A DNA stretch of 64,000 nt. Origin: an uncultured Spirochaetales bacterium. GTDB taxonomy: Bacteria > Spirochaetota > Spirochaetia > Sphaerochaetales > Sphaerochaetaceae. Where the stretch lies: positions 5,134 through 69,133 of the forward strand of contig CACZJR010000002.1 of NCBI GenBank assembly GCA_902781545.1, given 5' to 3'. Shown here one piece after another: positions 58,103 through 62,578 of this stretch. The position numbers and the translations under genes were made by a program. The first letter of the stretch is position 1, and each line of letters opens with the position of its first letter. Under the pieces are notes generated by a model that ran no database searches, was not told the DNA's origin, and saw only the letters and a program-made list of their open reading frames with translations.

Positions 58103-58136
58103 AGACCTGAGAACTCCTTGGTTCCCAGGTCTTTTT
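58103..58136 (+). terminator. rho-independent terminator of the feo operon
   Basis: AGACCTGAGAAC-TCCTTG-GTTCCCAGGTCT followed by TTTTTC. Confidence 0.65.
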
Positions 58137-58150
58137 CATTTGTGCTCGGT

Positions 58151-58207
58151 GGAGGCTTTGGAAGTATTGGAGGCTTTGGAGGCCGTGGAAGCTTTCGAAA
58201 ACCTTCC
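58151..58207. repeat. left 9-nt-periodic repeat array (GGAGGCTTT-type units)
   Basis: ggaggcttt ggaagtatt ggaggcttt ggaggccgt ggaagcttt cgaaaacct tcc. It is the inverse complement of the right array. The inner end GGAAGCTTTCGAAAACCTTCC is an imperfect palindrome. Confidence 0.8.
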
Positions 58208-58289
58208 AATCATAAAAAAAACAAAGTTTTTGTCTAGAACCTGAAATATTTCCTGCACTTTTTTCGTATATAAGGGCAGGAGTAGAAAA

Positions 58290-58973
58290 ATGGTCAAAAT
58301 AACAAGAAGTGAATTATTAGGCTCAAGGCCTGGCGAGGATTTTCGGATAGGAGTGGCAAGTAAGAGCACTGTCCGGAAGAACGGGACGGTCTACCATGTC
58401 ATCACGACATCGTGGAGAAAGAAGTGGCTGTTTGATTCCACCCTGGCGGCTTACCGCAAGGATCTTCTGCATGAGCTATGTATAAAAAGAGGAATCACAA
58501 TCCTGTTTTCAGCGACAATGCCCACCCATACCCATGATGTGTTCATCACACCTGATTGGGAGACATTGTCCGGTGTCATGAAGACGCTGGACTCAGCCGT
58601 GGCAAAATATGTGAGGCGGCATTTTCCAGAGCGGATCAAAGGCAGGAACCTGGTATTCTCAAAGGATCCTGTCTACATCATGGTTGAAGACATAAGGCAT
58701 CTGTTCTTTCTGGGGAAATACATACATGGAAACTGCCAGTATCTGAAGGATGAGGGGAAACCCGTCCCGGACTCATGCTTCTGGATGTTCAGGAAGAATT
58801 ATCTCGCCCCGCCATATAACGAGAGAATCTACAGCCGTCTGTTCGGTATGTCTGCTCCCGAGTTGATCGAATTCTATGAGTCTCATTCAGATGCAGAGGT
58901 CCGGAGGTTTGCGAAAGAGAAATACAAGGACTGGACAAAAGAGGACAATGACAATCTTTTTGTAAGACGGTGA
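58290..58973 (+). CDS. Y1 HUH transposase (IS200/RayT-like, divergent)
   Basis: 227 aa. Motifs in canonical order: YHVITTSWRKKWLF (N-terminal strand), the HUH motif MPTHTHDVF and the catalytic Tyr motif KYIHGNCQY. Confidence 0.65.
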   Translation: MVKITRSELLGSRPGEDFRIGVASKSTVRKNGTVYHVITTSWRKKWLFDSTLAAYRKDLLHELCIKRGITILFSATMPTHTHDVFITPDWETLSGVMKTLDSAVAKYVRRHFPERIKGRNLVFSKDPVYIMVEDIRHLFFLGKYIHGNCQYLKDEGKPVPDSCFWMFRKNYLAPPYNERIYSRLFGMSAPELIEFYESHSDAEVRRFAKEKYKDWTKEDNDNLFVRR

Positions 58974-58982
58974 GGTTTCTGC

Positions 58983-59063
58983 AAGGTTTTCCAAAGCCTC
59001 CTATGCTTCCAAAGCTTCCTCAGCCCCCAAAGCCCCCAAAGCCTCCAAAGCCTCTAAAGCCCC
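58983..59063. repeat. right 9-nt-periodic repeat array (CCAAAGCCN units)
   Basis: About 8-9 units of ccaaagcct, ccaaagctt or ccaaagccc. It begins 10 nt after the transposase stop. Confidence 0.8.
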
Positions 59064-59072
59064 ACAATAACA

Positions 59073-59102
59073 AACCCCGGATTGCAATTAACAACCCGGG
59101 GT
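59073..59102 (-). terminator. terminator-like hairpin after the ABC permease gene
   Basis: The minus strand reads ACCCCGG-(15-nt loop)-CCGGGGT followed by TTGTTATTG. The U tract is weak. Confidence 0.4.
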
Positions 59103-59129
59103 CTGCAACGTTGAATCAGCGTGTTTGTC

Positions 59130-61463
59130 TTAGAACAGCTCCCACTCGGAAGCATCGATTCCGGCAAGGATCTTCTTGTCTGATCTTCTTCTCGGATCGA
59201 TCTTCTTCTGGATCATCTTCACGATCCTGACCATTATGCCCTGGATCACAAAGTAGACCACGGCGGTGAGGATCAGAGCGAAGAATGCCTCGTATGTGCG
59301 GCTTCTGACAAGGTCGCTTATCTTTGTCAGGTCAAGGACAGCGATGTAACCAACGACTGATGTCTCCTTGATCAGGGTCACGACCTCGTTGCTGTAGATC
59401 GGCAGGAAGTGATGGGCTGCCTGAGGAAGCAGGATTTTGAAGAAGCTCTGTCCGTCTGAGTAGCCCAGGGCGGTAGAGGCCTCATACTGGCCCTTTCCTA
59501 TCGCGTTGTAACCCACACGCAGCATGTCGATCATGGAGCATGCGAAGATCAGGGAGAAGCCCACTACGGAGATCCACATTCCGGACAGCCTGGAGGATCC
59601 GAAGATCACATAGTACAGGATCATCAGGAACAGGACCGTAGGCATTCCGTGGATCAGCCACATGAAGAAGTTCGTGGTCTTGTTTGCGAACACGTTGCCG
59701 TGCCTGCATGCCATGTAGACCGCAAAGCCGAGGATTGTTCCGATCAGGATCGAGCAGACGGTGATCAGTGTCGTGACTCCGGCTCCGGAGACGAACAGCT
59801 TCCACCTGTTCTCCCTGATGAAGGTCTTGTAGAAGCTGGTCTGCAGCTTCTCGAAGAATCCGGCCTTTGCCACCTCGGTCGTCCCAGATCCGGTTGCACC
59901 GGCATATGGTGAGTCCTCAAGTACGACAAGGTACACAGGGCATGTGTAATAGACATCTGAGAGCGTTCCGGTCTCGTTGCGCTCCTCGCTTACGACGATG
60001 TTCATTCCGATGTCGAACTTACCTGTCTCGACTCCCGGTGCGATTGACTCGAACGGGATCTCGTTGAAGACCGGTGTGTAACCGTACTCCTCGCAGAAGC
60101 GGCAGACGAACTCGACGTCAAAGCCTGCGAGGTTTCCGTCGCTGACGAAGCTGAACGGCTCGTATCCGCCCTCTACCGCGACATTGATGGTTCCGTTCTC
60201 ACCGGTGAAATTGAAGTCCTTGACTCCGACATTGTCGGTGGCAGGATCAAAGTCCGCGATCCAGTACTGGTACAGGCTGCCGTTGTCACCCAGAAGACCG
60301 TTCTTGTAGCCGTTGTCGATGAACTCGTTCATCTCACGGAGCAGGCGCTCCTGCTTGTCATTGTTTCCGATGATGTTGCTGGCGCTGATGTAGCCCGGAA
60401 TCTCCTTGAATGTGGTGAGCTCAGGATGGTTTGCCTTATGCACGCCGTAGCCTACTCCCTCAACGAGATAGCCTGCTACCTTGCCTGACTTGAGGGCAAG
60501 GATCATGTCGGTCGGCATGGTGAAGTAAGCGAACTCAGTGTTCGGGACACGGTCCTGGATCAGCTCCTCATAGAGCACCGCGGTCTGGACTCCGATCGGA
60601 AGACCGTCCAGGTCCTCTATCCTGTTGTACTGACCTGAAGCTGATGCAGCTGCAGCAGTGTTGTCCGAACCCAGCACGACCATATAGACAGGACATGTGT
60701 AGTAGATGTCTGAGAGCGTTCCGGTCTCGTTGCGCTCCTCGCTTACGACGATGTTCATTCCTATGTCGAACTTACCTGTCTCCACTCCCGGTGCGATTGA
60801 CTCGAACGGGATCTCATTGAAGACCGGAGTATAGCCGTACTCCACGCAGAAACGGCATACGAACTCGACGTCAAAGCCTGCGAGGTTTCCGTCGCTGACG
60901 AAGCTGAACGGCTCATAACCGCCCTCGACCGCCACATTAAGGGTACCGTTCTCACCGGTGAACTCAAAGTCCTTGACGCCCACATTGTCGGTAAGAGGGT
61001 CAAAATCAGCGATCCAGTACTGGTACAGGCTGCCGTTGTCACCCAGAAGACCGTTCTCATAACCCTTTCTGATGAACTCGTTCATCTCACGGAGCAGGCG
61101 CTCCTGCTTGTCATTGTTTCCGATGATGTTGCTGGCGCTGATATAGCCGGGAACTTCCTTGAATACATCAAGCTCAGGGTGGTTCGCCTTGTGAACGCCG
61201 TAGCCCACAGCCTCAACAAGGTATGCGGCCACCTTGCCTGACTTGAGGGCAAGGATCATGTCGGTAGGCATGGTGAAGTAAGAGAACTCAGTGTCAGGGA
61301 CACGGTCCTGGATCAGCTCCTCATAAAGGACAGCGGTCTGGACTCCGATGGGAAGGCCGTTGAAATCCTCGATCTTGGTGAACTTGCTTGTGTCGACCGT
61401 TGCGGCGGACACTGCGGTGCAGAGGAGGATAAGGACAGTAATGAAAGAAAGTAATCTCTTCAT
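59130..61463 (-). CDS. amino-acid ABC transporter, fused tandem substrate-binding region + permease (GlnP-like)
   Basis: I trimmed the ORF to the MKRLLSF start at 61463 (GGAGGAG SD, 2 nt after the ATPase stop). It has a signal peptide, two 235-aa repeats of PBP type-3 sequence, then a HisM/GlnP-type TMD. Confidence 0.85.
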   Translation of the reverse strand: MKRLLSFITVLILLCTAVSAATVDTSKFTKIEDFNGLPIGVQTAVLYEELIQDRVPDTEFSYFTMPTDMILALKSGKVAAYLVEAVGYGVHKANHPELDVFKEVPGYISASNIIGNNDKQERLLREMNEFIRKGYENGLLGDNGSLYQYWIADFDPLTDNVGVKDFEFTGENGTLNVAVEGGYEPFSFVSDGNLAGFDVEFVCRFCVEYGYTPVFNEIPFESIAPGVETGKFDIGMNIVVSEERNETGTLSDIYYTCPVYMVVLGSDNTAAAASASGQYNRIEDLDGLPIGVQTAVLYEELIQDRVPNTEFAYFTMPTDMILALKSGKVAGYLVEGVGYGVHKANHPELTTFKEIPGYISASNIIGNNDKQERLLREMNEFIDNGYKNGLLGDNGSLYQYWIADFDPATDNVGVKDFNFTGENGTINVAVEGGYEPFSFVSDGNLAGFDVEFVCRFCEEYGYTPVFNEIPFESIAPGVETGKFDIGMNIVVSEERNETGTLSDVYYTCPVYLVVLEDSPYAGATGSGTTEVAKAGFFEKLQTSFYKTFIRENRWKLFVSGAGVTTLITVCSILIGTILGFAVYMACRHGNVFANKTTNFFMWLIHGMPTVLFLMILYYVIFGSSRLSGMWISVVGFSLIFACSMIDMLRVGYNAIGKGQYEASTALGYSDGQSFFKILLPQAAHHFLPIYSNEVVTLIKETSVVGYIAVLDLTKISDLVRSRTYEAFFALILTAVVYFVIQGIMVRIVKMIQKKIDPRRRSDKKILAGIDASEWELF
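59919..61376 (-). repeat. intragenic tandem duplication, period 753 bp (2 x about 705 bp)
   Basis: Copies at 59919..60623 and 60672..61376. An identical 51-mer, tgagagcgttccggtctcgttgcgctcctcgcttacgacgatgttcattcc, occurs at 59958 and 60711. The protein repeats are residues 36-270 and 287-521. Confidence 0.9.
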
Positions 61464-61465
61464 GC

Positions 61466-62578
61466 TCACTCCTCCACCCACTTGAAGCTCATGTCGATCT
61501 GATACTCACATCCATCCGGGTCATCGGTAAGCTTCTTCTCGCTGACGGATGTCGTGGGCTCATCAAGCAGAAGCAGGAAGAGTTTGCTTTCCGACTCCCT
61601 TGGAGTGAAATGCTCCTCTGCCTTGTACTTGACTGAGAGATACAGTGTGTCCTGTTTCTCCGAATACTCGATCTTGACCATGATGAACGGGTTGTCCGAG
61701 TAGTTGGCGATGTTGTTGATACAGATTTCCTCGATTGCAAGGCTGAGCTTCGTGAGACGCTCGGCCTCGATCAGGAGCTTCTCACCATAGGCCTGAAGTT
61801 CCTCGTTCATCGCCTCGAAATCGAACTCCGTGCTGTCGATCTTGTAGCTGAGAGTGGTGAGTCTCTGGACGAACTTGCGTGTGAGCTCCTTCTGGGGATG
61901 GTCGAAGATCTGCTTCGGGGTCCCCTCCTCATAGATGACACCGTCAGCCATGAACAGGACGCGGTTGGAGATCTTGCGGGCGAAATCCATCTCGTGGGTG
62001 ACAATCATCATGGTCCTTCCGGTCTTGGCAAGGAGCTTGATGACTGACTGGACCTCACCTATCATGCTCGGGTCCAGTGCGCTTGTAGGCTCGTCAAAGA
62101 GGATGATGTCAGGATCCATCGCCAGAGTCCTGGCGATTGCGATTCTCTGCTGCTGTCCGCCTGAGAGCTCGTCCGGATAAGAGAACACCTTTGTGGCAAG
62201 ACCGACCTGGGTCAGAAGGTACATGGCCTTGTCAAAGGCCTCCTGCCTGCTTCTTCCCAACAGGGTGATCTGAGGATTCATGATGTTCTCGATTACTGTG
62301 AGATGACCGAAGAGGTTGAAGGACTGGAAGACCATTCCCATCTTCTTTCTCACTTCGTTGAGGTTGCAGCCTCTAGCTGTGATGTCCTGGCCATCAACGA
62401 TGATCTCGCCGCTTGTGGGCTCTGTGAGCATGTTGATGCATCTGAGCAATGTGGACTTGCCCGTGCCAGAAGGTCCGATGATGCTTATCACATCCCCGTT
62501 GTTGATGGTAACGTTCACATCTTTCAATGGAATTGTGTTATCATCAAACTCCTTTCTCAAATGACGTATTTCAATCAT
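61466..62578 (-). CDS. amino-acid ABC transporter ATP-binding protein (GlnQ-like) with a C-terminal extension of about 130 aa
   Basis: I trimmed the ORF to the MIEIRHLRKEF start at 62578. It has Walker A GPSGTGKST, the LSGGQQQR signature and Walker B ILFDEPTSALD. The extra C-terminal domain (LTTLSYKIDSTEFDF...FKWVEE) is of unknown family. Confidence 0.85.
   Translation of the reverse strand: MIEIRHLRKEFDDNTIPLKDVNVTINNGDVISIIGPSGTGKSTLLRCINMLTEPTSGEIIVDGQDITARGCNLNEVRKKMGMVFQSFNLFGHLTVIENIMNPQITLLGRSRQEAFDKAMYLLTQVGLATKVFSYPDELSGGQQQRIAIARTLAMDPDIILFDEPTSALDPSMIGEVQSVIKLLAKTGRTMMIVTHEMDFARKISNRVLFMADGVIYEEGTPKQIFDHPQKELTRKFVQRLTTLSYKIDSTEFDFEAMNEELQAYGEKLLIEAERLTKLSLAIEEICINNIANYSDNPFIMVKIEYSEKQDTLYLSVKYKAEEHFTPRESESKLFLLLLDEPTTSVSEKKLTDDPDGCEYQIDMSFKWVEE

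Follow-up and report, generated by a model that had tools for sequence, protein, structure and literature searches.

We describe an array–gene–array element at positions 58150-59063 of the window, the 64,000-nucleotide (nt) stretch of contig CACZJR010000002.1 (assembly GCA_902781545.1) that was analysed and whose positions serve as coordinates here. A gene for a Y1/HUH transposase lies between two mutually inverted arrays of 9-nt units, and each array ends towards the gene in a short conserved sequence which we call the 'head'. About 50 homologous loci were examined, all but a few from a single Sphaerochaetaceae genus of the rumen. Nearly all of these genes are located between inverted period-9 arrays, and four between arrays of period 10. 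The element looks like an undescribed variant of the partnership between RayT transposases and repetitive extragenic palindromes (REP), in which phased tandem repeats take the place of hairpins. Our best reading is a REPtron- or TIRtron-like system, so far found mainly in this single genus.

Anatomy of the element and its protein

The element comprises the following parts.

58150..58198, unstranded: left array of five period-9 units, TGGAGGCTT, TGGAAGTAT, TGGAGGCTT, TGGAGGCCG and TGGAAGCTT (Tandem Repeats Finder (TRF) and repeat pairing)
58196..58212, unstranded: left head TTCGAAAACCTTCCAATCA, the gene-proximal end of the module, conserved in the homologous loci L002, L003 and L008 and in gene-less modules of the same genome
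58216..58289, plus strand: region upstream of the Y1 gene, a copy of a near-invariant promoter cassette found genome-wide, with its core GAAATATTTCCTGCACTTTTTTCGTATA at 58243-58270
58290..58973, plus strand: Y1/HUH transposase gene, 227 amino acids (aa) (Pfam, alignment, AlphaFold (AF2) model, Foldseek)
58978..58992, unstranded: right head TCTGCAAGGTTTTCC, an inverted copy of the left head (sequence and inverted-repeat pairing)
58990..59063, unstranded: right array of eight period-9 units, consensus TCCAAAGCC (TRF score 81, 79% matches)

TRF reports the left array at 58150-58195 (5.1 copies, period 9, consensus TGGAGGCTT) and the right array at 58990-59061 (8.0 copies, consensus TCCAAAGCC). 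The two pair as inverted repeats, with 75% complementarity over 59-nt arms and 83% over 48-nt arms. The inner end of the left array, GGAAGCTTTCGAAAACCTT (58189-58207), and that of the right array, read as the reverse complement of 58984-59002 (GGAGGCTTTGGAAAACCTT), show 2 mismatches over 19 nt. A preliminary description of the locus, made from the sequence, had already reported a Y1 gene bracketed by inverted 9-nt arrays with a 17/19 match of the inner ends; TRF and inverted-repeat pairing agree with the former, and the count read off the sequence is the same. The 'array hairpins' of that description did not hold: folded as single-stranded DNA (ssDNA) on both strands, the ends of the element have z-scores of -0.07, -1.7, +0.77 and +0.40 and thus fold no better than shuffled sequences.

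The protein matches the Pfam family Y1_Tnp (PF01797) with 33.7 bits (E 4e-8, cutoff 23), residues 34-146 aligning with profile positions 6-119 of 121. No second Pfam domain was found in the 227 residues even at E<=10. Two NCBIfam equivalogs stay below their cutoffs, the IS200 model NF033573 with 25.1 bits (cutoff 55) and the REP_Tyr_transpos model NF047646 with 16.8 bits (cutoff 80). Residues H80, T81, H82, Y144 and N148 are invariant in an alignment of 16 homologues. The HUH motif reads T-H-T-H, with an unusual threonine in the 'u' position. The tyrosine motif is of the Y---N type, the catalytic Y144 lying within Y-I-H-G-N. Distant members of the family (P0028-P0038) carry a proline after N148 where the window protein has N-C; Y---NP is the signature of class 2 (TnpA_REP) (Quentin et al. 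2018, PMC6006769).

The AF2 model of the protein has a pLDDT of 89.5 and a pTM of 0.88. The best 30 Foldseek hits in the PDB, which include all 28 with E<=1e-3, are structures of ISDra2, IS608, IS200-like or RayT proteins. The best E-values belong to the TnpA proteins of ISDra2 and IS608, and the longest structural alignment to the RayT protein of E. coli (4ER8; 160 columns, TMq 0.49). Profile and fold therefore both support the divergent Y1/HUH transposase proposed in the preliminary description, whose two motifs, MPTHTHDVF and KYIHGNCQY, are present verbatim in the reading frame. The two profile checks which it suggested came out differently, since Y1_Tnp is matched above its cutoff and the curated RayT model is not reached.

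Residues ~150-227 form a conserved, family-specific helical C-terminal domain. Modelled alone (pLDDT 82), this domain found no match in a PDB fold search. We considered a DnaA-box-type helix-turn-helix (HTH) which would read the 9-bp units, and dropped the idea because neither Pfam nor the PDB supports it.

Relatives, gene-less modules and turnover

A search of genome contigs with the single protein gave no match, and an alignment-based search gave 6 loci. The full set consists of 31 loci fetched from genomes and metagenomes and 19 further loci. All genomes, the own one included, are metagenome-assembled, so that repeats may be collapsed or may break contigs, and the genomes other than the own one were scanned for arrays in part. 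The gene is present in 21 of 27 genomes of the own genus (own genome included, 1-6 copies each), in 1 of 10 genomes from other genera of the family and in 0 of 24 from other families of the class. The family is small: a profile search of 1.84 billion representative proteins returned 38 clusters at E<=1e-10, after which generic Y1 proteins set in.

By sliding-window periodicity, most of the 31 loci have period-9 segments to the left and right of the gene, or on one side where the contig ends; periods 6, 10 and 12 gave almost no signal there. Among periods 5-15, period 9 scored best in 47 of 59 flanks of homologous genes. The 19 further loci have period 9 on both sides in 14 cases and period 10 on both sides in 3, and a fourth period-10 element is located at G018:C5:47278-47889 (G, C and L denote genomes, contigs and loci). 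On the protein tree, the period-10 elements have at least three separate origins beside period-9 sisters.

Arrays comprise from ~5 to >40 units. The unit sequence is specific to each element, examples being CTTGCAMAY, CTGGTGCGT, CCATTGGAG, GGTTGTGGC and TCAAACAGT, and inspection of the units revealed no motif common to different elements. The two flanks of one element nevertheless belong together. Across 43 elements, comparing the left flank with the reverse-complemented right flank of the same element gives a median of 23 common 8-mers; the median is 1 when other elements are compared, and likewise 1 when the right flank of the same element is taken in direct orientation. Flanks are inverted in 41 of the 43; the remaining two have no common 8-mers. 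Exceptions to the rule that the own partner matches best are mostly orthologous sister elements. The head faces the gene on both sides at all loci inspected. In the closest clade the left head reads CCAAAACCTTCCA and the right head TGGAAGGTTTTGG, and the AAAACCTTCC head is restricted to this clade.

The ends and solo modules were also examined for REP-like hairpins. In the own and other genomes, 42 of 50 strand folds of module ssDNA lie within ~2 standard deviations of shuffled sequences. The strong exceptions are units with a self-complementary TTGCAA core. Since modules otherwise fold like shuffles, they are not palindromes of the REP type. No GTAG foot was found in the heads.

Some loci depart from the common layout. 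In L033, L019, L018 and L035 the Y1 frame has no stop before the right array, runs into it and acquires a tail of tripeptide repeats (L033: ...QTHQTHQTPQTHQ). L008 (G021:C58) has an additional open reading frame (ORF), MMMGTKFNDFLAEQL..., between the left head and the Y1 promoter (oriented 1000-1500), which by eye resembles an XRE/HigA-type HTH protein. Its right array is down to ~3 units, followed by another small ORF (oriented 2170-2560). The extra ORFs of L008 possibly form a toxin-antitoxin pair lodged inside the element.

The own genome (2.2 Mb, 128 contigs, 93% complete) contains one copy of the Y1 gene. In eight other genomes, copies that share a genome have 39-67% identity, and near-identical gene pairs were not seen. 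The gene is under purifying selection, with a ratio of non-synonymous to synonymous substitution rates (dN/dS) of 0.06-0.10 in four orthologous between-genome pairs. As judged from sequence comparison, low copy number, low identity within genomes and purifying selection make up a RayT-like rather than an IS-like pattern (IS, insertion sequence).

Modules without a gene are a further part of the system. A solo module consists of a single head and a single array and is equivalent to one end of the full element. TRF found 13 solo period-9 arrays in the own genome, which fall into two families.

Family A, unit TGGAAGATA, head TTGGAAGGGTT: C20:2226, C40:1918, C103:1631, C108:2241, C3:27800, C73:521 (TRF)
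Family B, seven copies, unit TAGATGCCC, head CTAGATGTAGT: C22:12613, C30:12993, C69:4191, C73:6153, C121:1215, C110:4147, C122:307 (TRF)

Searches with the heads added a module at C46:275-355, with head AGAACCTTCCAAT and mixed units that include GGAGGCTYT as at the window locus, and a stub of 1-2 units at C32:20815. In total, ten modules of the own genome carry the window's head, the two at the gene included (consensus CCAAACCCTTCCAA). Solo modules are mostly placed directly 3' of a stop codon or between convergent genes. Most are complete head-plus-array units with no partner end or gene fragment nearby, and no gene-less inverted pair able to act as a target was seen in the own genome.

The preliminary description had supposed that a dispersed 9-mer array might define a new REP-like family, and had proposed a genome-wide search for arrays and transposase copies. 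Taken literally, dispersal fails: the exact 11-mers of the window, GGAGGCTTTGG and CCAAAGCCTCC, form an array at the window locus only, all other hits being single (C2:37893, C9:13400, C40:1961). What stands is a family in a wider sense, that is, the ten head-sharing modules with related units and a second family of seven copies. The search thus yielded related modules and no second copy of the gene.

Solo modules can be related to Y1 genes by their 8-mers. Family A best matches the flanks of L002, whose protein is 59% identical to that of the window, and family B those of L014, a Y1 gene in the sister genome G005. For 7 of the 9 solo arrays in G010, the match is with flanks of a Y1 gene from G010 itself. 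Stacks of modules, or compound clusters, also occur. One of them, in G010 (C4:14590-14900, L118), contains four different modules with periods 9, 10, 10 and 9, and an inverted copy of it, with the last two modules near-identical, lies 10 kb away (C4:25000-25250, L119:5000-5250). The inverted pair could mediate an inversion. The DNA between the copies holds ordinary-looking chromosomal ORFs, one of 956 aa.

Whether arrays accompany the gene was assessed by counting non-coding period-9 and period-10 arrays in sampled DNA.

G010: six Y1 copies, 88 kb, 6 arrays
G018: five Y1 copies, 390 kb, 7 arrays
G001 (same genus): no Y1 gene, 400 kb, 1 array (AT-rich)
G029 (another genus): no Y1 gene, 400 kb, 0 arrays
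G004: no Y1 gene at E<=1e-10, 375 kb, 7 arrays (AT-rich)

The association is suggestive and only partly clean, G001 and G029 being in its favour and G004 not.

Orthologous sites give a view of turnover. The order feoB, Cys-rich ORF, gap, ABC transporter gene is kept in the five closest genomes compared, with 81-84% nucleotide identity at the feoB end. The gap has the following contents.

Own genome: the window element
G015 (L046, G015:C44): a sister element, 65% identical, in opposite orientation, with unit GTACGMGGA
G005, G008, G009: gene-less arrays with other units
G023: gene-less arrays and a remnant, CCATATCTTCCAAAACCTTCCAG, bearing the window's head

The G015 element is the sister of the window element on the protein tree as well. 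Its opposite orientation is what an inversion by recombination across its inverted flanking arrays, or else a separate insertion, would give. Solo modules also come and go: the family B module at C30 is common to the own genome and G005, where its units have drifted (TAGTTGCCC), and is absent in G023 and G015; G023 also lacks the family A module at C20. In the orthologous insertion represented by L003 and L008, each locus has expanded a different unit variant. These comparisons suggest that the arrays behave as fast-evolving tandem repeats within slowly moving modules.

Known systems and competing explanations

Three systems were used for comparison: the REPtron, the TIRtron (also TIRYT) and the TnpA of IS200/IS605. 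A REPtron is a REP-associated tyrosine transposase (RAYT, TnpA_REP) gene with flanking REPs or bacterial interspersed mosaic elements (BIMEs) (Nunvar 2010, PMC2817692; Ton-Hoang 2012, PMC3333891; Bertels and Rainey 2011, PMC3116915). It corresponds to class 2 of Quentin et al. 2018 (PMC6006769) and is represented by E. coli yafM (PDB 4ER8). The window element shares with it the Y1/HUH fold, 4ER8 giving the longest structural alignment, and a tyrosine motif of the form Y-x-x-x-N(P), the Pro being present in distant members and not in the window protein. Both have low copy number, low identity within genomes and vertical persistence with purifying selection. In both, inverted repeat copies flank the gene, the same repeat is dispersed without a gene in intergenic DNA, the repeat type is specific to each gene lineage, and repeats cluster. 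A REP is a hairpin of 20-40 nt whose foot reads GT[AG]G; the repeat described here is a non-palindromic 9-10-nt tandem array with a head, and lacks hairpin potential. Furthermore, the HUH motif is T-H-T-H, with Thr at 'u', whereas Table 1 of Quentin et al. gives D/N-H-(V/I/L/F/Y)-H (PMC6006769), and REP_Tyr_transpos is missed by a wide interval (16.8 bits against 80). The module families counted in the own genome have 7 and 10 copies, whereas REPs usually exceed 100 copies per genome (Nunvar 2010, PMC2817692).

The TIRtron (Di Nocera et al. 2013, PMC3733652) is subclass 2.1 of TnpAY1 according to Quentin et al. 2018 (PMC6006769). It too has a RAYT-like Y1 gene between terminal inverted repeats (TIRs) other than REP hairpins, and a ~230-aa protein with a C-terminal extension; some of its TIRs are members of small dispersed repeat families. 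Its GGGGWSAS motif is not in the ends of the window element. The C-terminal domain of the window protein has no Bac_DnaA_C, HTH_23 or HTH_28 signal and no PDB fold match, and phased tandem-array ends are not described in the available text of Di Nocera et al. 2013 (PMC3733652). The IS200/IS605 elements IS608 and ISDra2 (subclass 1.1) are close in fold, with the best Foldseek E-values, and in the Pfam Y1_Tnp match. They differ in the tyrosine motif (Y---Q there, Y---N here). The window element has neither subterminal hairpins nor tnpB, its family has no multiple copies of high identity, NF033573 reaches 25.1 bits against a cutoff of 55, and the window protein is ~90 residues longer.

The window element is thus REPtron-like in layout but not a canonical RAYT/REP member, because the curated models are not reached and the arrays have no hairpins. 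The REP types in Quentin et al. 2018 (PMC6006769) are hairpins only, or 'no' for subclasses 1.2, 2.1 and 2.3, and spirochaetes are nowhere mentioned in that work. Full-text searching of the literature did not turn up any Y1 transposase described with ends made of short tandem arrays.

We consider it fairly probable that head-plus-array modules are the substrate of the enzyme, which would cleave and rejoin ssDNA in the head or close to it, and that slippage or unequal exchange drives the later evolution of the arrays. The anatomy is that of a low-copy, vertically kept gene for a Y1/HUH ssDNA endonuclease, located head-to-head between two cognate modules. Each module has a 12-20-nt head and then 5 to >40 tandem units, which measure 9 nt or, in some lineages, 10 nt. 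In the proposed scheme the enzyme, like other Y1 transposases probably dimeric, would cut and rejoin one DNA strand at or near the head, so that modules are copied or moved, as is thought for RayT with REP/REPIN. The arrays would grow, shrink and homogenise through slippage or unequal exchange, which would explain a fast drift of units with the period and the left/right complementarity kept. The data show an anatomy that recurs at ~50 loci, the gene-less dispersal, presence and absence at orthologous sites, and purifying selection on the gene; the action of the enzyme on modules, the cut position and the reason for a period of 9-10 are what we infer.

Several observations weigh against this reading. 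G004, a 97% complete genome, carries its seven AT-rich period-9/10 arrays without a gene detectable at E<=1e-10. These arrays (L142, L146, L149, L152, L153, L156) are intergenic, e.g. GCRTAATTT x14, and an 8-mer comparison found no resemblance to known flanks; a recognisable cognate gene is therefore no precondition for arrays. For family B, the own assembly contains no cognate gene, and most solo modules of this genome carry units unlike those at the gene. L003 and L008 differ in their predominant units despite 82% protein identity, which makes unit recognition encoded in the protein doubtful. At the C30 and C20 sites, neither a target-site duplication nor exact insertion ends could be defined, as filled and empty sites differ by 16-20% in their flanks. 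Finally, modules do not fold as hairpins (z-scores mostly -2 to +2). To our knowledge, every characterised Y1 transposase (IS608, ISDra2, RayT) finds its DNA via a hairpin.

A bolder variant addresses the last point. Recognition could be hairpin-free and the phased 9-10-nt arrays could be written and maintained by the enzyme itself, a proposal we regard as rather unlikely. Two routes are conceivable. Repeated cut-and-rejoin steps might follow one another one unit apart; or left and right arrays on the same strand might pair into a register-tolerant stem that presents both heads. Either would account for the constancy of period and complementarity in the face of freely drifting units. If this is true, HUH transposases would have a new means of defining their substrates, and short tandem repeats in bacteria a new mode of formation.

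The array–gene–array unit might instead be an autonomous insertion sequence which transposes as a whole, a view we doubt. The arrays would then be long TIRs made of multiple transposase-binding sites, like the ends of Mu, Tn7 and IS21, and gene-less arrays would be decayed ends or one-ended products. The inverted ends are indeed element-specific, some solos resemble remnants (the array-plus-head fragment of G023 at the feo site, the C32 stub), and an element occupies the same site in the own genome and G015 and is absent in four relatives. However, no near-identical gene pair was seen among within-genome copies of only 39-67% identity, and orthologous copies persist across species under purifying selection. 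Most solos are complete modules after stop codons, without partner end or gene fragment, and the compound cluster that was recently duplicated in G010 has no gene.

It is also conceivable, at a distinctly low probability, that the arrays are host elements, such as transcript-end elements or phased sites bound by a nucleoid or regulatory protein, and that the Y1 gene inserts in or next to them. IS1397 is known to target REPs. The G004 arrays, the location of arrays at gene 3' ends and the drift of units independently of the protein (L003/L008) would fit such a role, and a period of 9-10 nt would be close to one turn of the DNA helix. Insertion into an existing array would leave flanks in direct orientation, and for this reason the view is disfavoured: flanks are inverted in 41 of 43 elements and sharing in direct orientation is at background. 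In addition, the head faces the gene on both sides, the array type is specific to the gene lineage and recurs as solos of the same genome, and the own genome showed no gene-less inverted pair as a possible target.

That the arrays are coding, as outward small ORFs which begin with (M/L)EGF and continue in tripeptide repeats with three codons per 9-nt period, is very improbable. In its favour, the outward frame is open at 58970-59230 (MRFLQGFPKPPMLPKLPQPPKPP..., with a GTG overlapping the Y1 stop codon), those of L002 and L003 are open too, gene callers annotated small ORFs over the arrays of both, and the Y1 ORF reads into the array in L033 and L019, but the view is weakened because four period-10 elements of at least three origins share the layout beside period-9 sisters, TAG or TGA interrupts at least one frame of many units, a 9-mer repeat is by our estimate expected to be stop-free by chance in most frames, and the left-end start codon lies upstream of the sole promoter-like site.

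The reading of head-plus-array modules served by a RayT-like enzyme has wider implications. Several Y1 subclasses are listed without a repeat partner by Quentin et al. 2018 (PMC6006769) and Di Nocera et al. 2013 (PMC3733652). In the compact, well-sampled family of ~50 loci, the gene is paired with a repeat that is a phased tandem array and does not fold; mirror symmetry and the period (9, sometimes 10) are conserved across elements, the array sequence is not. It may serve as a test case for substrate definition by domesticated HUH enzymes, for the origin and turnover of short intergenic tandem repeats in bacteria, and for the influence of modules on neighbouring genes, as modules lie at gene ends and four of them directly upstream of the promoter cassette.

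Promoter-like cassette and neighbouring sequences

The region upstream of the Y1 gene was at first a candidate for an element-specific promoter, which proved wrong. It is a copy of a cassette, CAACAGAAAAAAA-N5-8-TTTTTTCC-GAAAGTT-GAAATATTTCCTGCACTTTTTTCGTATA, that occurs 24 times in the own genome with <=3 mismatches in the 28-nt core. All copies precede the start codons of unrelated genes, at a distance of 15-60 nt (e.g. C17:1448, C20:7785, C24:6444, C78:1936, C116:340). This conservation is far above that usual for promoters; a strong promoter, a regulator site and a mobile promoter are the candidates for its nature.

Three gene-less array-plus-head modules in 'left-end' orientation abut the cassette upstream (C3:27800-27920, C103:1500-1670, C46:275-460). 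The genes that follow, none a transposase, encode a secreted protein starting MKKARNIIMSVLILMALAS, an ORF starting MSETYELVKF, which we take to be RhuM-like, and a small ORF. These modules are either decayed elements or modules that landed beside a cassette.

Three further features lie at the borders of the element or within it.

58103..58132, plus strand: terminator-like hairpin with T-run, left boundary, downstream of the FeoB-associated Cys-rich ORF (inverted repeat)
58209..58236, minus strand: outward-facing sigma-70-like promoter match, TAGACA-16-TATGAT, 10/12
59071..59105, minus strand: GC-rich hairpin, right boundary, 3' of the convergent ABC-transporter gene (inverted repeat, 14-nt arms, 86% complementarity)

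The element sits in the feoB / Cys-rich ORF / gap / ABC setting. Hairpins on either side agree with the earlier placement between a feo and an ABC terminator. For the left one, the terminator scan matched 58117-58129, followed by TCTTTTTCAT. The right one is a probable terminator of the ABC gene, for which the promoter/terminator scan gave no call. The outward promoter match is the sole hit of the scan, against 1.2 expected in shuffled sequences, and as a weak match is a lead at most. A search for known RNA families gave no match near threshold. The lower GC content noted by eye in the preliminary description was confirmed by computation, with 0.45-0.49 for the element and 0.52-0.56 for its neighbours. 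The adjacent ABC-transporter ORF (59130-61481, minus strand, 783 aa) contains two near-identical tandem domains of the substrate-binding type and a fused permease domain.

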